NCBI GenBank assembly: GCA_964353785.1
Contig: CAYGWK010000003.1
Location: 17,303 to 81,302, forward strand
Direction of reading: 5' to 3'
Source: an uncultured Gammaproteobacteria bacterium
Lineage (GTDB): Bacteria; Patescibacteriota; Microgenomatia; CAYGWK01
Length of the DNA: 64,000 nt
In this document: one piece after another, positions 7,093-56,183 of the stretch
Position numbering within the stretch: the stretch's first letter is position 1
Layout: every line of letters begins with the position of its first letter
Notes under the pieces: generated by a model
Databases searched by the model: none
What the model was told of the DNA's origin: nothing
Seen by the model: only the letters and a program-made list of their open reading frames with translations
Program-made: the position numbers and the translations under genes

Positions 7093-7659
7093 ATGATGGA
7101 AACAAAAAAATTAGCAAAACAAAATCTTTGGCAACAAGTATCTTCTGGTGAAAAAATTCCTCAAGAAATAAACTGCCTGATTGAGATTCCCAAAGGGGGG
7201 ACCAATAAATATGAATACGATTCCCGATGGGGAACCTTCAGGCTTGACAGAGTCCTATATGAGGCAGTTTTTTATCCAACTGAATACGGAATTATTCCCC
7301 AAACCTGGAGCGAAAAAGACAAAGACCCTCTTGATGTTATGGTTTTATCAACTTTTCCAACTTTCCCAGGCTGCGTTATTCCTTGTCGACCAATTGGCGC
7401 TATCAGGCTTTTAGACACAGGTGAAGAAGACAATAAAATTGTCGCCGTGCCTGTCAATGATCCTCGTTTTGAACAAGTTAAAGATTTGTCGGATTTACCG
7501 CCTCATTCCAAAAAAGAGATCTCAAATTTCTGGGAAAATTACTCTGAACTTCAACCCGAGAAAAAAATCAAAGTTTTGGGTTGGAGCGCCAAAGAAAAAG
7601 CCTGGGAAATGATAAGAGAAGGAGTTGAAAGTTACCGGAAAATTTTTGGCGTCTCCTAA
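7093..7659 (+). CDS. ppa: Inorganic pyrophosphatase (family I)
   Basis: The track ORF 6973..7659 overlaps the gyrB 3' end. The likely start is ATG 7093 (MMETKKL...). Family I core IEIPKGGTNKYEYD. Confidence 0.8.
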   Translation: MMETKKLAKQNLWQQVSSGEKIPQEINCLIEIPKGGTNKYEYDSRWGTFRLDRVLYEAVFYPTEYGIIPQTWSEKDKDPLDVMVLSTFPTFPGCVIPCRPIGAIRLLDTGEEDNKIVAVPVNDPRFEQVKDLSDLPPHSKKEISNFWENYSELQPEKKIKVLGWSAKEKAWEMIREGVESYRKIFGVS

Positions 7660-10245: not shown

Positions 10246-11747
10246 AATTCCTACTCCTTTTTTTAGTTTATTTTTTAACCAGATTTTTTGCTCTTTCTTC
10301 TTTACCAATCTTCAATGACGAGTCAATTTACCTTCATTGGGGTCAAATCATGACCAATGTTCCGGGTCAGGCTTTTTATTCACTTTTTGACGGTAAACCA
10401 CCGCTTGTTCTTTGGGTTTTTGGAACTATCCAAAAATTTCCAATTGATCCGCTAGTCGCTGGAAGATTAATCTCAATTATTTTTGGGACCTTAACCATCT
10501 TTGGAATTTTAAAAATTTGCCAGCTCCTTAAATTTTCTCAAAAGACCCAAATTATTGCCGGTCTTTTATATATTTTAAGCCCCTTGACTTTATTTTTTGA
10601 TCGCCTAGCAATTTTAGATAGTCCAATTTCCACCATTTTTATTTGGATAGTCTATCTCTCTTTAAAAATTTCCCAATCCAAAATCATTAATCATAAGCAA
10701 AGCTTGTTGCTACGCAATAAATCATCAATCCTGCTTGGCTTGGTCCAGGCCGCTGGTCTTTGGATTAAAGGCACTTGCCGCATTTTTCTCTTTCTTCCAT
10801 TTATAATTCCAGTTTTAACTTTACTTGCCGACAAAAATAAAAAGGGGGCGAGTAGGGAAGCGGTATCTTTTTTTATCTCTTTCGCCTTAGCTCAAATTCT
10901 TTTTTTCCCAATCAGACTTAATTCTCTTTTCCCAATTTTCCAGAAAAGAGAAGCGGATTTTCTCCTACCTTTATCAGGGATATTTAGCCCAGTGGTCTGG
11001 TCTTCTCATCTCTTACTCTTAATTCTTACTTTGACTGTTTTTATCACCCCTTTGGTTTTAATTTTTGCTGTTTTTGGTTTTTATAAACTTTTTAAAACAG
11101 ATAAGAAAACGGCTCTGGTTTTATTATCGTTTTCAGTAATTCCTCTTGTAATTGAAATTTCAACCGCCCGCTTTTTTCTCTCTCGCTATTTTCTCTTTAC
11201 CATCTTGCCAATTTTTATTTTCTGCGCTTACGGACTTGAGCAAATTAAAAAATGGAAAAAAATCGCTGCCATTTTTACTTTCATTCTGCCAGTAACTCTT
11301 ACTCTATCTCTTACTCTCACTCCCTTCTCAACCCTTAAAACTTTGTCCCAGAATAAACATAGTTTGTTGCTTCGCAATAAAATTCTCGCCCAAGATTTAG
11401 AACAATATTTTACTGGCTGGACTTCAGGTTATGGGGTTAAGGAAGCAGCAGATTTTCTAGTCCAGGAGTCCCAAAAAGGCCCAATAATTGTTCTTCTTCG
11501 GGCCGACAGCGGTAACCCGGAAGATGGAATGTTTGTTTTCTTGGGAAAAAATAAAAATATAATTTTTGCTCAAGCGACTCAAAAACCAAAACCAGAAGAA
11601 CTTAAGGCTTTATCAAAATTTCCAATTTTCTTTGTCAGTCGCGGTCCGCAGTTTCTTGGGATGGAGAATTCGCTTTCCGAATTAGCAATATTTAAGAAGC
11701 CTCTCGGAGAAGAGTTTGTGGGAATCTATAAAATCAATTTTAAATAG
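10242..11747 (+). CDS. Polytopic membrane glycosyltransferase-like protein (GT39/ArnT/PMT-like fold), carrying two in-frame 27-bp element insertions
   Basis: GTG start overlapping the gyrA stop. 501 aa, >10 TM helices, N-terminus [19 protein letters not shown] resembles dolichyl-/undecaprenyl-phosphate sugar transferases. Contains KQSLLLRNK and KHSLLLRNK encoded by the dispersed 27-bp element. Confidence 0.55.
10695..10721 (+). repeat. 27-bp dispersed element, in-frame (KQSLLLRNK) in GT39-like gene
   Basis: AAGCAAAGCTTGTTGCTACGCAATAAA; in frame relative to the ORF start at 10242. Confidence 0.85.
11355..11381 (+). repeat. 27-bp dispersed element, degenerate copy, in-frame (KHSLLLRNK) in the same GT39-like gene
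   Basis: AAACATAGTTTGTTGCTTCGCAATAAA. Confidence 0.75.
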
Positions 11748-12484: not shown

Positions 12485-12544
12485 TTTATCATAAATGATT
12501 AAATCTCTCCAGTTTTATTTTCTTACAAACTATTGATAAGTTTG

Positions 12545-12570
12545 TATATCATATATTAATATATGATATA
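12545..12570. promoter_or_regulatory. Perfect 26-bp AT-rich palindrome TATATCATATATTAATATATGATATA in the divergent promoter region of the TrpR-like gene (candidate operator)
   Basis: Exact dyad symmetry. Overlaps the annotated ATG of the HTH gene. Nearly identical copies occur at 12963..12984 and 55989..56008. Confidence 0.45.
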
Positions 12571-12962: not shown

Positions 12963-12984
12963 GTATATCATATATTAATATATC
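12963..12984. promoter_or_regulatory. Second copy of the 21-bp core GTATATCATATATTAATATAT (imperfect palindrome) immediately downstream of the TrpR-like gene
   Basis: 21/21 direct repeat of 12544..12564. The right half-site is degenerate (…ATATCGTATA). Confidence 0.4.
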
Positions 12985-13007
12985 GTATAAGTTATCTTCC
13001 CTAAAAA

Positions 13008-17108: not shown

Positions 17109-17866
17109 CTGGCTGTTCCAAGCATGACCAATAATACCACAATTCCAACCCCAAGATATTCATAAATTGTTTGCTTAAAAAGTCTCTCCTGAAATTCTGC
17201 CTGAACCAAACCTAAAGTCACATAAATTGAGGTGGTTAGAAAAAGCGAAGCCATAGCAATAGTCACTGGATAAAAGGAAATGATAAAAGCCATCTCTCCA
17301 GAAACCAAAGACAGAAAAATAGTATAATCTAAAATTCTTCTGGTTAATTTCTCTTCGAGATTAACCGACCAGAGTCCCTGAAGAAATAGAGGTAGAGAGA
17401 CCCCAAACACCAAAAGAGAATTCCACCATCCAGAAATTCTAAAGGAAAAAATGGTGTCAAAAAGAAAAAAGGCGGTCAAAAGGGTCAGTAAAAAACCAAC
17501 TGCGTGAGCGGCCCGGAGAAGTTGAATGGTGCGAATGGCAGCTACGGAAAAGATATTTTCTGTCAAAAGTAAAGCATAAATCCCAACTGCGTAAAGGGCA
17601 ACCACCGGCAGCTGGGAAAAAATGTTGGCCGGCAGTAAAAAATAAAAAAGTCCAACTCCGGCGGTAAAAAGAGTCGGCAGGATGGCAGTGGTCAGAAAAC
17701 GGATTCCAGACAAGGCTTCTTTAAGCGACCAAAGAGTTAAAAGAGCGGAGACTAGAGTTAAACCAAAAATTGCCTGATAACGAAACTCTGGCTCAAGTGT
17801 CTGGATTGCCAAAAGCCCACCAGCTAAAACTGCCGAGGTTAAAATGAATTTCTGTCTTTTAGACAT
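17096..17866 (-). CDS. Hypothetical polytopic membrane protein
   Basis: About 8 TM helices. Start placed at the second Met (MSKRQKF) to minimise overlap with yebC. Confidence 0.5.
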   Translation of the reverse strand: MSKRQKFILTSAVLAGGLLAIQTLEPEFRYQAIFGLTLVSALLTLWSLKEALSGIRFLTTAILPTLFTAGVGLFYFLLPANIFSQLPVVALYAVGIYALLLTENIFSVAAIRTIQLLRAAHAVGFLLTLLTAFFLFDTIFSFRISGWWNSLLVFGVSLPLFLQGLWSVNLEEKLTRRILDYTIFLSLVSGEMAFIISFYPVTIAMASLFLTTSIYVTLGLVQAEFQERLFKQTIYEYLGVGIVVLLVMLGTARWGG

Positions 17867-18596: not shown

Positions 18597-18680
18597 AAAT
18601 TAGTTATATTCTAACAGAATTTCCACTAAAAATCTGCGTTTGGAGACGAGGGCAGGTATAATTTTTGCGCTAGTCAAGAT

Positions 18681-18871
18681 GGCGAGGTAACAATTTTTGC
18701 GTTTTTTAATCTTTTAATAAGGGGGCGAGGGTAGAATTTTTGTGAAGGTTTCATCTGGCAAGCCCGAGGACAACGGAACACAACTCGACTTCCAGACTTC
18801 AGAATCCGAGGGCGGTCCGCCGATTCGGCGGAGGCCATGTCGAAACCGAACAACAAATTCCTACCCGAGCC
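18681..18871 (-). ncRNA. Paralog 1 of an unidentified ~160-190 nt structured RNA-like element (has a duplicated 5' arm)
   Basis: Shares conserved blocks with 36349..36505 and 56012..56176 (AACAATTTTTGCG, GGCAAGCC, CGGAACACAACT, AAATTC). Terminal helix GGCGAGGGTAG / CTACCCGAGCC and an internal hairpin CCGCCGA-TT-CGGCGG at the position where the paralogs have different but still paired sequences. Starts 4 nt after the LCP-gene stop. Strand is inferred from the flanking genes. Confidence 0.5.
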
Positions 18872-34261: not shown

Positions 34262-35073
34262 TGTAGGTTTTTAGGAAAAAACAAAAATTTTTCCTCTCCA
34301 GAAAGCAAAGCTTCTTTACCTTTTCTTTTTTCCAATTCTTGCCAAATTTCTTTTGGGACAGATCCGTCGTTGCCTCCTAGAGAAACTATTGTCAATTCAT
34401 TTGCCTCCGCTTCAGGGGAAATTGAACCTCCAACAAGTCCGGCTATCCCCAAAGCTTCGGCCTTATGGCAAATCCCAAGAGAAATTTTACCACCGGCAAC
34501 CAAAATTTTCCCTTTATCTTCTGGTCTAAGTTGAGAAAGTTTGACCTCTTCGTCTCTTTCTCCCAAAACATCAAGAATTCCAAAAACTTTTCCTCCTCTT
34601 CCCCAACCTCCTTCAATTTTTTCTCCCTCAAATTCCAAAACCAAAAGATTTCCTTTTTTTTCTTTTATTGCGGAGCAACAAACTTTGTTTATTTTACCGG
34701 AGAAAGGACTTAAGAGTTCTTTTTTCTCGCTTTTTGTTTTTATCTTTAAAATCCCTTTATCAGAAAGGCCGACAAACACTCCGGCAACTGGACTTTTAAA
34801 AATCGTTCCTTTCCCAAAAAGTCCTTTTTTAATGGCCACAATCTGGCCCTTTTCAATTTTTGCCCCCGGAGAAATCGAAAGAATCTTACTTACTTTTTTT
34901 GGAGAAATCGAAAAAAAGCCCGCCAAATCAAATTCTTCAAATTCTTCCACCTCTTCGGTTGCCAAAACTTTTCCTTTCAAAACCTCATCTCCCTCACTTA
35001 CCAAAATTTTTGCCTCTTTTGGAAGAGGAAAAGAAAAGAGAGAGCTAGAGATTTCAAAGGCAGGGTTTGTCAT
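34258..35073 (-). CDS. Hypothetical protein (271 aa) with in-frame 27-bp element insertion (NKVCCSAIK frame)
   Basis: Translationally coupled between the S41 peptidase gene and rpsR. Element at 34664..34690 read in the +1 frame relative to the KQSLLLRNK copies. Confidence 0.5.
   Translation of the reverse strand: MTNPAFEISSSLFSFPLPKEAKILVSEGDEVLKGKVLATEEVEEFEEFDLAGFFSISPKKVSKILSISPGAKIEKGQIVAIKKGLFGKGTIFKSPVAGVFVGLSDKGILKIKTKSEKKELLSPFSGKINKVCCSAIKEKKGNLLVLEFEGEKIEGGWGRGGKVFGILDVLGERDEEVKLSQLRPEDKGKILVAGGKISLGICHKAEALGIAGLVGGSISPEAEANELTIVSLGGNDGSVPKEIWQELEKRKGKEALLSGEEKFLFFPKNLQ
34664..34690 (-). repeat. 27-bp dispersed element (sense on the minus strand), +1-frame reading (NKVCCSAIK) inside the 34258..35073 gene
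   Basis: The minus-strand sequence is AAACAAAGTTTGTTGCTCCGCAATAAA. Confidence 0.8.
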
Positions 35074-35892: not shown

Positions 35893-36189
35893 TTAATCAA
35901 CTCTGACCAACAAATATCTTAAAACTTTTTCATTTAGACGCAACTTTTTTCCAATTTCTACCGGAACTTCTTGGGAAAGTTCTAAATTGAAAAGAAAATA
36001 AATTCCTTCTTTAGACTTTTTACCCGCTTTTCTAATCGGGTAAGCCAGTTCCTTTTTTCCCCATTCATCTACCTTCTCAACCTTTCCTTTCGCCTTTTCA
36101 ATCTCCCCTTTTATCTCTTCAACCAATTTCTTCCTTTCATCTTCTTTTAAATCCGGGTCTAAGACTACTGCCATTTCATATTTTCGCAT
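35893..36189 (-). CDS. rpsF: 30S ribosomal protein S6
   Basis: MRKYEMAVVLDPDL...; classic rpsF-ssb-rpsR order. Confidence 0.9.
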   Translation of the reverse strand: MRKYEMAVVLDPDLKEDERKKLVEEIKGEIEKAKGKVEKVDEWGKKELAYPIRKAGKKSKEGIYFLFNLELSQEVPVEIGKKLRLNEKVLRYLLVRVD

Positions 36190-36226
36190 AAAGGAAAGTA
36201 TAACAAATAATTAGAAATTAGTAAAT

Positions 36227-36322
36227 AAGCAGAGCTTGTTGCTTTGCAATAAGCAGAGCTTGTTGCTTTGCAATAAGCAGAGCTTGTTGCTTTGCAATAA
36301 GCAGAGCTTGTTGCTTTGCAAT
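36227..36322. repeat. Perfect 4x tandem array of the 24-nt core (AAGCAGAGCTTGTTGCTTTGCAAT) of the dispersed 27-bp element, in the rpsF 5' leader
   Basis: Four identical head-to-tail copies and no spacers. Each unit can form a GCAGAGC/GCTTTGC 7-bp hairpin with one G.T pair. Followed by a short GTAATTAG-type repeat. Confidence 0.9.
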
Positions 36323-36348
36323 AGTAATTAGTAATTAGGTAGTAATTA

Positions 36349-36505
36349 GGCGGAGAGGTAACAATTTTTGCGCAGGATTTAGGTGGCAAGCCGCGACCCC
36401 ATCGGAACACAACTTGAGTTTCAAGCTGCCCAGTCGCGAGCTGGTCCCGCGTCAAACGCGGGAGCCATCTTTAAATCCAAGCAACAAATTCGTTACCGAA
36501 CCGCC
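36349..36505 (-). ncRNA. Paralog 2 of the unidentified structured RNA-like element
   Basis: Terminal helix GGCGG-AGA-GGTAAC-AATTT / AAATT-C-GTTACC-GAA-CCGCC; internal hairpin CCCGCG-TCAAA-CGCGGG. Starts 12 nt after the ychF stop and sits with the tandem array in the rpsF leader. Confidence 0.5.
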
Positions 36506-42837: not shown

Positions 42838-44451
42838 CTACTCCACTATACCAGAAAAAATTTCTTTGGCAACTTCAACAATATCTTCATCGGTCGTCTC
42901 TCCATTTCCTGGAACCACGGGTTCCACTGGTTTTTCCGTGTATTCCTCTTTCTTTTCCGTGATTTCCGTGGTTTTGGGTCTTTCTCCCAAAATACATTTT
43001 AAGTTGATTGGCATTCCTAAAAACTCCGAAGCCACCTCTTCAACAATTTTTCGACATTTTTCAGTTTCAAGTTGGTCTTTATGAAACTTGTAAAAAACTT
43101 CCAAAGTTAAAACTCCACCGGCAAGGTTAATTGGCCGAGTTGCTCGAAGTAAAGCTTCAACCGAATGATTTCTGGGTCGAACTGCCAAAAGAACTTCTTT
43201 CCAATGACCCTGAATCTCTTCTAAAGAAACACTTCCTCTACTTTTAAAACGCGGGGAGGACTGGCTTTCTGCGAAAACTTCAGTTGTTTGAGGCAAGCCC
43301 GAGTGAGATAAAGTCGAGTCCGAAGGACGAGCGGAGTCTCCGAGGGCTGGTGTCGCCTTCGGCGACAGCCGAGTTTGAAGTTGAGCAGAAGACTGTCCGA
43401 CCTTAGCATCCATCCTTCCGCACCACTCTACTACCGCCAACTCAAGCGGAAGTTGAGGAATAACGGCGTCTTTTAATTCCAAAGCAGCTTTGGAAAAAAT
43501 CTCAATCAAAGCTTTTATTTCGCCAGTTTCCAATTTCCAGTTTCCAATTTCCAGTTCATCCTGAACCACCCCAAACTTTTCAAGCAAAGCAGTTCGGAGA
43601 ATTTCAAGCAGACCTTCAGTATAAACCCTTAAGTTTCCTCCTGTTTCAACCACCCGACCAATTTCCGAAATTCCTCCTTTAATATCTTTGGCCGCCAAAA
43701 ACTCAAGCAATTTCTCCGGCGCTAGGCCAACCGTTTGTCCTAAAAGTTCTTTTATTTGCTCAACCGTTATCTTCGTTCCAGAAAACGAGGCCTGTTCCAA
43801 AATTTTTTGGGCATCGCGAAAACTACCAGAAACGCTTCTTGAGATTTCTCGCAGAGCCCCCGCTTCCACTTCAAGTTTTTCCACCTCGCAAATTTTCTCA
43901 AGTTTTGCCACAATCTCGGCAATGGTCGCTCTTTTAAAATTGAATCTTAGGCAACGAGAAATTATTGTTTCGGGAAGTTTTTCTGGAGCGGTGGTGCAGA
44001 GAATAAAGATAGCATGGGCAGGCGGCTCTTCCAAGGTTTTTAAAAGGGCATTGAAGGCTTCCAAAGTTAACATATGAGCCTCATCAATAATATAAACTTT
44101 GTATTTTGCTGACGCAGGAGCCAATTTTATTTTTTCTCTTAAGGATCTGATGTCATCAATTCCCCGATTTGAGGCGGCATCGATTTCTAGAACATCCAGG
44201 TTTGTTCCAGCGGTAATTGAAAGACATTGGTCGCAACTGTTACATGGTTCAAAATCTTTTTTCTTAAGACAATTGACCGCTTTGGCAATAATCCTCGCCG
44301 CTGAAGTTTTCCCAGTTCCTCTTGGTCCACAAAATAAAAAAGCATGAGGGATTTTTCCGGATTTTAAAACTTTTTCCAAACCTTCACGGACAGAAGTTAG
44401 GTCTAGTTCGGAAATTTTCTGCGGTCGATATTTGGTTGTATAGTCACTCAT
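42838..44451 (-). CDS. dnaX: DNA polymerase III subunit gamma/tau
   Basis: 537 aa; AAA+ GPRGTGKTS, zinc module C..C..C..C. Contains a 7-bp-period x5 repeat. Confidence 0.9.
   Translation of the reverse strand: MSDYTTKYRPQKISELDLTSVREGLEKVLKSGKIPHAFLFCGPRGTGKTSAARIIAKAVNCLKKKDFEPCNSCDQCLSITAGTNLDVLEIDAASNRGIDDIRSLREKIKLAPASAKYKVYIIDEAHMLTLEAFNALLKTLEEPPAHAIFILCTTAPEKLPETIISRCLRFNFKRATIAEIVAKLEKICEVEKLEVEAGALREISRSVSGSFRDAQKILEQASFSGTKITVEQIKELLGQTVGLAPEKLLEFLAAKDIKGGISEIGRVVETGGNLRVYTEGLLEILRTALLEKFGVVQDELEIGNWKLETGEIKALIEIFSKAALELKDAVIPQLPLELAVVEWCGRMDAKVGQSSAQLQTRLSPKATPALGDSARPSDSTLSHSGLPQTTEVFAESQSSPRFKSRGSVSLEEIQGHWKEVLLAVRPRNHSVEALLRATRPINLAGGVLTLEVFYKFHKDQLETEKCRKIVEEVASEFLGMPINLKCILGERPKTTEITEKKEEYTEKPVEPVVPGNGETTDEDIVEVAKEIFSGIVE
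43523..43557. repeat. 7-bp-period repeat (CCA(G/A)TTT x5) inside dnaX
   Basis: Units CCAGTTT CCAATTT CCAGTTT CCAATTT CCAGTTC; encodes ELEIGNWKLETGE. Confidence 0.8.
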
Positions 44452-55432: not shown

Positions 55433-55993
55433 TTAAAAGCAAGACAAAATTTTCTCGATTTCTTCTTTGAATTTTTCCACAAATTTTTCATCTTTGACTT
55501 GAGAAAGATTTATTCTGACATTTTCCAGGGCTCCATAAATTGCCGCGGTTGCCAGTTCAATTCCGCATCTGGCGTCAGAAACCGCGTTTTGATTTCCTTT
55601 GGCAGCCACAAATGAAGCCAGGCGCAAAACTTCAAGCGATTTTTTGGCCGTTTCCAGCGGAACTTCGGCGGCATTCTTTAGGGCTTCCTGTATCTTCTTG
55701 TTCCTTGTCTCTTGTTGCTCTTCCTCTTCTTTTGGTAATCGATAAGCCTTAACCACTTCATTGTATGCTTGACAATCTTTATCTGAAAGTTCTAATAATT
55801 CACTTCTTAATTTGTCTGCTTTTTGAGTGATTTTTGAAACCTCTAGGTTTTCTTTTGTTAATCTGGCAACTTTTCCAACCAAGGCCGCTCCCATTGCTCC
55901 CGCCAACGCCGCACTTGCTCCTCCGCCAGGTGTCGGCGCCTTTGAAGAAACTTCTTCTAAAAATTTCTTTATTTTTTGCTCTCGAATTATCAT
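55433..55993 (-). CDS. Formiminotetrahydrofolate cyclodeaminase-like protein (FtcD C-terminal domain homolog)
   Basis: Start taken at MIIREQKIKK (ATG 55993). The longer track ORF (to 56155) reads through the RNA-like element. TPGGGASAALAGAMGAAL motif. Confidence 0.7.
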   Translation of the reverse strand: MIIREQKIKKFLEEVSSKAPTPGGGASAALAGAMGAALVGKVARLTKENLEVSKITQKADKLRSELLELSDKDCQAYNEVVKAYRLPKEEEEQQETRNKKIQEALKNAAEVPLETAKKSLEVLRLASFVAAKGNQNAVSDARCGIELATAAIYGALENVRINLSQVKDEKFVEKFKEEIEKILSCF

Positions 55994-56008
55994 ATATTGA
56001 TATATGAT
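55989..56008. promoter_or_regulatory. AT-rich palindrome ATCATATATTGATATATGAT overlapping the cyclodeaminase start codon
   Basis: Differs at one position from the perfect palindrome found upstream of the TrpR-like gene at 12548..12567. Confidence 0.4.
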
Positions 56009-56011
56009 GTC

Positions 56012-56176
56012 AGTAATGGATGGCGAGGGAACAATTTTTGCGCAGGATTTATGTGGCAAGCCGCGACCCAACCGGAACACAACTTGAGTTTCAAATAACC
56101 TAGTCGCGAGCTGGTCCCGCACCAATTTTGGTGCGGGAGCCATCTCTAAATCCAAGCAATAAATTCGTTCCCGAGC
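56012..56176 (-). ncRNA. Paralog 3 of the unidentified structured RNA-like element
   Basis: Terminal helix GGC-GAG-GGAAC-AATTT / AAATT-C-GTTCC-CGA-GCC (compensatory versus paralog 2). Internal hairpin CCCGCACCAA-TT-TTGGTGCGGG is longer than but nested on that of paralog 2. Starts 7 nt after the formiminotransferase stop. Confidence 0.5.
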
Positions 56177-56183
56177 CAGCCTC

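Follow-up and report, generated by a model that had tools for sequence, protein, structure and literature searches.

The DNA analysed here, called the window throughout, is a stretch of 64,000 nucleotides (contig CAYGWK010000003.1 of assembly GCA_964353785.1, forward-strand positions 17,303 to 81,302) from an uncultured bacterium that GTDB places among the Microgenomatia of the Patescibacteriota and that, judging from the names on homologues of its YebC and YchF proteins, probably belongs close to Candidatus Shapirobacteria. Three of its minus-strand intergenic gaps each hold a full copy of one structured repeat: copy 1 follows the gene for a LytR_C protein and precedes yebC, copy 2 follows ychF and precedes rpsF (ribosomal protein S6), and copy 3 separates FTCD_N from FTCD_C. 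The upstream stop codon lies 4, 12 and 6 nt from the element in the three full copies, and the pattern GGCAAGCC-N(6-14)-CGGAACACAAC has exactly three matches in the window, at 18757, 36385 and 56055, against a shuffle expectation of 0.00. These are most likely small selfish DNA elements, not an RNA gene. At a probability of roughly 0.6, they are lineage-specific, non-autonomous palindromic interspersed repeats, comparable to REPINs, which are built from repetitive extragenic palindromic (REP) units, and to Rickettsia palindromic elements (RPEs), and they probably act as single-stranded DNA.

A first-pass annotation, made from the letters of the window, had already reported the three elements, and all of them were recovered where it placed them. 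Its sites were right, and the cores are redrawn here to 18724-18871, 36352-36502 and 56022-56177. The conserved blocks it named are all present, as are the terminal helices it listed (GGTAAC/GTTACC, GGAAC/GTTCC and GGTAG/CTACC) and a different internal hairpin in each of the three copies. Its names for the neighbouring genes agree with the domain assignments (LytR_C/YebC, YchF/S6, FTCD_N/FTCD_C), and the measured distances bear out its statement that the elements begin 4-12 nt past the upstream stop. Copy 1 had been described as carrying a duplicated 5' arm; extra arm sequence does exist there, but it consists of two solo arms located 3' of the element on the sense (minus) strand.

The window samples a larger family of about 20 distinct copies, each 145-160 nt long and non-coding, with inverted arms, found in ~300 kb of fetched DNA. 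A scan of species-level genomes, one genome per species, gave 13 pattern hits, of which the four real ones all fell in a single genome, Patescibacteria MAG191 (JBMORX01). The same kind of scan in metagenomes added seven further distinct copies on related contigs, and profile and covariance-model searches of the fetched DNA returned more diverged copies, while viral contigs gave no match to the core motif. Pairwise identity defines four subtypes, A to D, the last two contributed by the profile and covariance-model searches; the window carries A (copies 2 and 3) and B (copy 1), and MAG191 carries all four. All copies come from Shapirobacteria-like Patescibacteria. YebC of MAG191 is 84% identical to that of the window, and two MAG191 copies on separate contigs are 96% identical to each other. 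The flanking gene pairs are unrelated (NrdR/NrdD, ComEA/ComEC, GAPDH/LOG, YkuD/Lon, YchF/S6, LytR_C/YebC, FTCD_N/FTCD_C, FemAB/FemAB and efp). The first-pass annotation had proposed a covariance-model search of related DNA and a check of whether the element consistently follows stop codons: further copies were found with their pairing preserved, and 11 of the 13 scorable sites have the element starting 3-14 nt after a stop codon. A literature search found no description of structured repeats or of miniature transposable elements with inverted repeats (MITEs) in Patescibacteria.

One fold is common to all subtypes. At its base is the stem P1, followed by a short P2 and a three-way junction, from which the GC-rich hairpin P3 and the longer hairpin P4, with a less regular tip (P5), branch off. 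P1 comprises about 30 pairs, interrupted by a 2x2 UC/UC loop, a bulged G and a small internal loop, and the ends of the element pair over ~35 bp. The two arms, inverted repeats of each other, have an invariant A/T-rich core (GAATTTGTTGC / GCAAAAATT) and outer bases that depend on the subtype. Only 1 + 3 + 1 bases are unpaired at the three-way junction. The junction strand GGCTTGCC and the motif AGTTGTGTTCCG are conserved in subtypes A and B, the motif being gone from D and from part of C. Compared with shuffled sequences, copy 2 folds as RNA with z-scores of -6.2 (minus strand) and -7.1 (plus strand), and its sense strand folded with DNA parameters reaches -6.8. Two other structural ideas were tried and rejected. 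An internal conserved segment, ...GTTGTGTTCCG, could have been an alternative partner of the 5' arm, but it is invariant and the arm is not; the 1 + 3 + 1 junction and the lack of an Rfam match spoke against a hammerhead or other small ribozyme.

Compensatory change is real and extensive, as the first-pass annotation had proposed from three copies. In a plain alignment of 17 copies, 98.6% of the P1/P2 cells pair and 11 pairs have changed on both sides, and pairing falls to 40-55% when the partners are slid. When all subtypes were aligned with MAFFT, P3-P5 did not come out structurally consistent, so a covariance model was built from subtype A and everything was realigned to it. The resulting alignment of 23 matches leans towards the model, a lean from which the P1 result in the plain alignment is free; across the whole structure 92.3% of its cells pair, against 78% after shuffling and at most 50% with slid partners, and double changes occur in 34 of 54 pairs. 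In this alignment P3 (helix 5) has every cell paired (100%) and four of its five pairs covarying. Its sequence and length vary in nearly every copy and its stem is almost always perfect. The orthologue of copy 2 in locus L040, for example, has GCCGCC-loop-GGCGGC as its P3 and differs from copy 2 mostly by compensated P3 changes and by changes at bulges. Identical P3 variants also occur across subtypes.

The kind of pairing that is conserved bears on whether the fold acts as DNA or RNA. The covariation runs nearly always from one Watson-Crick pair to another, with many transversion swaps (A-T to T-A, C-G to G-C). In P1-P3, G-U accounts for 11 of 733 cells, and A-C for equally many (11/733). Both strands fold about equally well, with summed energies of -961 kcal/mol (sense) and -936 kcal/mol; counts of 59 G-U against 38 A-C cells, under a model built from the sense strand, weakly favour that strand. 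These data bear on a different explanation, a structured RNA that acts in cis from the 3' untranslated region (UTR) or the intercistronic region, offering an RNase III-type site for processing, a means of stabilising the 3' end or a block just behind the terminating ribosome, and that spreads as something useful to the host. Conservation of structure across subtypes while sequence changes is what such an RNA would show, and some G-U pairs are conserved on the sense strand; the near absence of G-U from the main helices, where A-C mismatches are as rare, speaks against it.

Polarity is the second property of the family. Every subtype has CTCG, or a close variant, in the two arms of one strand, together with a bulged G in the 5' arm; these conserved asymmetries give the element a sense strand. 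At 15 of 16 independent sites the sense strand runs in the direction of the flanking genes, as the cis-acting RNA would predict, the exception being the FemAB/FemAB gap (L012, L024). GC skew at third codon positions (GC3 skew) separates the replication strands cleanly in these genomes, genes on the minority strand being negative in their own sense, and it identifies the G-rich strand with the sense strand of the element at 17 of 17 loci. The FemAB/FemAB gap obeys the G-rich rule too: its genes lie on the other strand and have negative GC3 skew, and the element there is antisense to them, which counts against the cis-acting RNA. Over the whole window (1-64000), nearly all minus-strand genes have a positive GC3 skew and nearly all plus-strand genes a negative one, the exception being a short open reading frame (ORF) on the plus strand, and the minus strand, with 52 of the 67 long ORFs, is the G-rich (leading-sequence) strand throughout. 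The G-rich strand is conventionally the leading-strand sequence, and so the template of lagging-strand synthesis; GC3 skew thus suggests that the element's sense strand is the lagging-strand template. An orientation that follows replication is suggestive, and not proof.

The third property is turnover at orthologous sites. At the ychF/rpsF gap, the window and L040 (YchF 91% identical) have subtype A, L019/L032 (87%) have subtype B, and L038 (78%) and L036 (70%) have nothing; other arm-derived inserts occupy this region in L039 and L034. The latter two carry an 'X' hairpin (L034:10903-10990, L039:3824-3910) made of a 3'-arm-like segment, a conserved 20-nt loop and a 5'-arm-like segment, an arm order reversed relative to the element, as at the junction of two tandem copies or at a circle junction. 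Located within the 3' end of ychF and bordered by a direct repeat of 11-14 nt, it provides a substitute C-terminus. The LytR_C/yebC gap has a full copy and two solo arms in the window, a single subtype-B arm directly after the stop codon in L041 (YebC 90% identical), and nothing in L045 (80%). Beyond yebC, L041 also carries a gene for an Avd-like protein (7181-7552; PF05635 / bAvd) with no counterpart there in the window; bAvd/PF05635 is described as an accessory protein of diversity-generating retroelements. The efp gap is occupied in MAG191 only. That genome also has consecutive gaps filled (a 253-residue ORF/nrdR/nrdD; comEA/comEC followed by two copies) and a solo subtype-B arm next to a copy of subtype C; in another genome a copy of subtype B occupies that site. 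No target-site duplication was read from the sequences flanking ~17 insertions, and no conserved target motif either, the upstream flanks being T-rich and otherwise lacking a common motif.

One degenerate copy lies within dnaX, where it falls in the linker (about residues 350-400) of the reading frame. The window, L019 and L036 have it, all three with the frame intact, and L034 lacks it. In L019 a 36-nt deletion has removed its 5' arm, and between the window and L036 its P3 stem has been rewritten with compensation. This copy is truly translated, and two ORFs, 36165-36455 and 55433-56155, cross copies 2 and 3, which is the ground for reading the conserved blocks as protein-coding N-terminal extensions of the downstream genes. 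The chance of that is close to nil, and for the intergenic copies the idea is refuted. These read-through ORFs, which the first-pass annotation had doubted, are artefacts: the indels that separate the copies are not multiples of 3, copy 3 is closed in the frame that dnaX uses, the first residue of the FTCD_C domain is only number 61 of ORF 55433-56155, and conservation follows pairing, not codons. Automatic gene calls will probably make FTCD_C ~55 codons too long and report a spurious ORF of 96 residues that spans copy 2 and the tandem array beside it. The coordinates of the copies, arms and subelements in the window are collected in Table 1.

Table 1. Repeat copies, solo arms and structural landmarks mapped in the 64,000-nucleotide window.
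Feature	Position	Strand	Remarks	Score or basis
Copy 2 (subtype A)	36349-36505	minus	core 36352-36502; basal stem extended by GGCGG/CCGCC	covariance model, 172.5 bits
Copy 3 (subtype A)	56022-56177	minus	between FTCD_N and FTCD_C	covariance model, 167.5 bits
Copy 1 (subtype B)	18724-18871	minus	between LytR_C protein gene and yebC	covariance model, 85.9 bits
Solo 3' arm, subtype-A-like (...CGCAAAAATTGTTACCTCGCC)	18681-18701	minus	downstream of copy 1	
Second solo 3' arm, more diverged (GCGCAAAAATTATACCTG...)	18653-18670	minus	beside copy 1	
Degenerate copy in dnaX reading frame	43253-43403	minus	P3 and P4 hairpins retained	32.3 bits, E 1e-5 over 237 kb
P3 hairpin of copy 2, CCCGCG-loop-CGCGGG	36446-36462	minus	hypervariable perfect GC stem at three-way junction	
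Junction strand GGCTTGCC and motif AGTTGTGTTCCG (sense strand), copy 2	36385-36414	minus		pattern and alignment

Taken together, the family is dispersed, structurally constrained, polar, unstable at its sites and free of target duplications. Watson-Crick covariation, dispersal, site turnover, the copy in a coding sequence and the replication-strand orientation favour a mobile, hairpin-dependent element. We propose that its fold would act in single-stranded DNA exposed on the lagging-strand template, where a strand-specific enzyme would recognise it, a HUH/Y1-type transposase being the obvious candidate; the CTCG on both arms of one strand and the bulged G would serve as recognition or cleavage features. 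The perfect hairpins would be kept or regenerated by processes at the DNA level, either template switching within the palindrome or recombination between copies. Copies would survive only where they are harmless, a few bases past a stop codon and ahead of the promoter or ribosome site of the next gene, and in operons they would be carried passively in the mRNA. Their persistence just after stop codons may be explained by the remainder of the short spacer, which would hold the signals of the next gene. An example is a promoter-like site for rpsF with the extended -10 sequence TGTTATACT (TGCTATACT in L038), at 36197-36225 (minus) in the window, downstream of copy 2. It recurs in relatives at L032 ~1870-1890, L036 ~10957-10970 and L038 ~1155-1170, and is kept with or without the element.

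The position of this promoter places copy 2 in the 3' flank of ychF, upstream of the rpsF promoter, and not in an rpsF leader. It thereby bears on the view that the elements are an independent family of small RNA genes or a riboswitch-like leader for the downstream gene, which the stable, conserved structure and the place of copy 2 upstream of rpsF might suggest, since ribosomal-protein operons are known to carry regulatory leaders. We regard it as very unlikely. The Rfam comparison that the first-pass annotation had proposed found no matching family: a search of the whole window with release 15 gave no hit at the gathering score, a search of copy 2 at E up to 10 returned chance hits only, all on the adjacent tandem array, and a search at E up to 1 of four loci with subtypes A and B found nothing on the element. 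There is no room for a shared promoter, and no acceptable -35/-10 pair was seen by eye inside the element. No terminator follows it: no copy is followed by a T run, and a scan between ychF and rpsF found no intrinsic terminator on the sense strand. The downstream genes (yebC, rpsF, FTCD_C, nrdD, nrdR, comEC, a LOG-family gene and lon) are unrelated and form no single class, and orthologous sites in relatives lack the element.

The cis-acting structured RNA deserves more weight, and we consider it possible, though doubtful. Besides co-orientation and conserved structure, it is favoured by the start of the element 3-14 nt after the stop codon at 11 sites and by the location of several sites in probable operons, the nrdR/nrdD spacers being only 6 and 13 nt long. 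In E. coli, as Liang, Rudd and Deutscher reportedly found in 2015, REPs within ~15 nt of a stop codon lower expression via ribosome stalling. RNase III or RNase E is known to process transcripts that contain Correia or ERIC repeats (PMC10969869). Other observations run the other way: close relatives lack the element at the same sites, one site is occupied by different subtypes, one copy lies within coding sequence (dnaX), and the flanking genes have no common function. In addition, a canonical intrinsic terminator (CCCGCCAAAAGGCGGGATTTTTT, ~480-530, minus) in L031 separates the upstream gene from the copy, which is downstream of the terminator. The stem of this terminator is nearly the same as a P3 variant (CCCGCC...GGCGGG). 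An effect in the UTR or intercistronic RNA is possible as a consequence or a co-opted role, and by analogy with Correia and ERIC it may coexist with mobility. Thus, among the three options that the first-pass annotation had left side by side, the hairpin-dependent mobile element is favoured, a UTR effect is possible and an RNA gene is unlikely.

Mobility itself could take a more conventional form. In a classical MITE, a deletion derivative of an insertion sequence, a DDE transposase would bind the ~22-bp terminal inverted repeats as double-stranded DNA, and covariation of the arms would reflect the co-evolution of two identical binding sites. Inverted arms with an invariant A/T-rich core and subtype-specific outer bases, the solo and nested arms, and the purely Watson-Crick covariation all suit this idea. 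It is nevertheless unlikely: the ~17 insertions lack target-site duplications, neither a parent insertion sequence with these ends nor a transposase gene bounded by such arms was found in the ~300 kb sampled, P3 and P4 covary too, which is not required of a terminal binding site, and neither the strand asymmetries nor the strict replication polarity is expected of double-stranded cut-and-paste.

A mobilising enzyme was looked for in the same lineage. No RAYT-like or Y1 gene lies in the window. Elsewhere, four RAYT-like Y1 genes of 214-225 residues match PF01797 (L034:3448-4092, L036:3232-3876, L042:14063-14731 and L043:9042-9719), those of L036, L042 and L043 scoring 46-53 bits against NF047646, below its cut-off of 80. 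The gene in L043 sits in the LytR_C/yebC gap, where the window has copy 1. A link of the family to these genes was rejected, for the hairpins that flank them are unrelated to the arms and are found beside those genes only.

Several points weigh against the proposal of a mobile palindromic repeat. The unrelated hairpins of the RAYT-like genes are one, and in the sequence sampled no mobilising enzyme is linked to the family. The start 3-14 nt past the stop could mean a role at the RNA level and not merely tolerated space, and P4/P5 hold conserved G-U pairs on the sense strand. A single independent site (FemAB/FemAB) separates the replication rule from the transcription rule, and GC3 skew is the basis for assigning the leading strand. 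Within one species, neither an excision product nor a clean contrast of empty and filled junctions was seen, and the ~300 kb represent a sample of sequence, not per-genome copy numbers.

Comparison with known systems places the family near several of them and inside none. REPINs form hairpins in single-stranded DNA or mRNA, commonly show compensatory changes and leave singlets as remnants (PMC3116915). The present repeats resemble them as short, intergenic, non-coding sequences in which two inverted arms and a spacer form a long hairpin with compensatory changes, and they likewise show single-arm remnants, tandem clusters and no target duplication. TnpA-REP acts on one strand and needs mismatches in the stem (PMC8266576); conserved stem mismatches are found here too, and in REPINs these give strand specificity (PMC8266576). 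RAYT-like genes in the same lineage add to the likeness. In contrast to REPINs, the interior here is no simple spacer but a three-way junction with two further covarying hairpins. A REP unit is 20-50 nt long and preceded by a conserved tetranucleotide, usually GTAG (PMC8266576), whereas the arms of this family are not GTAG-preceded 20-50-nt palindromes: GTAG appears only in some subtype-B arms (GGGTAGGAAT), and subtypes A, C and D read GGGAAC, GGAGAC and GCGCAC. Nor does the sampled DNA contain a RAYT flanked by the same repeats, those present having unrelated flanking hairpins and scores below the family cut-off.

Rickettsia palindromic elements are ~100-150 bp long, fall into several families and lie between genes or in frame in unrelated housekeeping genes (PMC10969869). 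Palindromic repeats of ~150 bp, a reduced genome and an in-frame copy (here in dnaX) are shared features, and neither group has a known transposase. The likeness is functional only and membership is not claimed, as there is no sequence relationship and the phylum is another one; coding-region insertions number one here and dozens in Rickettsia, and the present copies lie mostly just past stop codons with strict replication polarity. Elements of the IS200/IS605 group excise and insert on the lagging-strand template (PMC5027513). They share with this family the dependence on hairpins, strand specificity, the lack of terminal duplication and the lagging-strand-template orientation (PMC5027513), as well as a short motif (CTCG here) repeated on one strand at both ends. 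Their ends, however, carry two different short subterminal hairpins without terminal inverted repeats, whereas here the ends pair with each other over ~35 bp; the insertions studied here have no conserved target tetranucleotide upstream, and no cognate TnpA was found. Correia, ERIC and BOX repeats are similar in size (100-160 bp), in their terminal inverted repeats and in their position in transcribed intergenic regions near gene ends, and in transcripts they form long hairpins that RNases can cut (PMC10969869). They have target duplications (TA for Correia) and occur in both orientations, neither of which holds for this family.

Integron attC sites, which mark gene cassettes, were a further candidate. 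They too combine a conserved fold with variable sequence, are imperfect palindromes whose bulged bases define the active strand, and lie right after stop codons, co-oriented with the gene; long attC sites have a variable terminal structure, and in L003 and L005 the elements fill consecutive gaps. The boxes R'' (RYYYAAC) and R' (GTTRRRY) are neither present nor conserved on either strand, the arms reading GGGAAC/GTTCCC, GGGTAG/CTACCC and GGAGAC/GTCTCC, and in place of a cassette context the flanking genes are syntenic housekeeping genes, also found in relatives that lack the element. No IntI-type integrase adjoins the elements: the only integrase-family genes seen encode Phage_integrase-domain proteins of 311-312 residues, presumably Xer-type recombinases, at the same syntenic position in L041-L043 and L045/L046 and away from the elements. 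An attC-like function is, in our view, extremely unlikely. In its workings the family comes closest to the REPINs and RPEs, and it has its replication polarity in common with IS200/IS605. By sequence it belongs to none of them, and it fails the defining features of REP/RAYT, IS200/IS605 and attC. What is unusual is the combination of a three-way-junction fold kept over four subtypes, CTCG on the same strand of both arms, a swappable, perfect P3, a stop-proximal position, strict replication polarity and minimal genomes.

This combination might point beyond the known transposase families, none of which would explain it, either to a mobile element or functional nucleic-acid module of candidate-phyla-radiation bacteria that is strand-specific and of a new type, or to a host-recruited RNA device that punctuates operons, an idea we consider fairly unlikely. 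An enzyme would then take the Y-shaped fold as its substrate and place it immediately after stop codons, with the CTCG-on-both-arms asymmetry, the bulged G and the swappable, always perfect P3 as key features of the fold, and the placement might couple to replication or to the termination of transcription or translation.

The window contains two other kinds of repeat. One, unrelated to the family, is a hairpin of ~28 nt, ATAAGCAGAGCTTGTTGCTYYGCAATAAA, with the stem GCAGAGC/GCTYYGC. It forms the tandem array near copy 2 (four 24-nt units, 36224-36320) and occurs singly at 10693, 11353, 24238 and 28807 and in reverse at 34663 and 56404. Its copies differ in which strand pairs better, and it could be a REP-like repeat or a weak bidirectional terminator. 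The other is an AT-rich perfect palindrome with the core ATCATATATTAATATATGAT, at 12544-12570, 12963-12989 and 55985-56011 in the window and at L042:14940-14965. Both the window and MAG191 have it in their intergenic DNA, in one case between copy 3 and the start of FTCD_C, and it looks like a putative operator for a dimeric regulator.

Compensatory changes alone are no proof of an RNA gene, and for annotation the discriminating features in this family were the near absence of G-U and the orientation linked to replication. The repeats probably also cause breaks in assemblies and false extensions of ORFs (the window has two such extensions), and the covariance model is directly usable for a census of other genomes. 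Their strict polarity and conserved asymmetries make the family a tractable case of how hairpin repeats spread without a known transposase. Patescibacteria have very small, tightly packed genomes, and the filling of gaps, the swapping of subtypes, the single-arm scars and the entry into dnaX show active genome turnover in this lineage.

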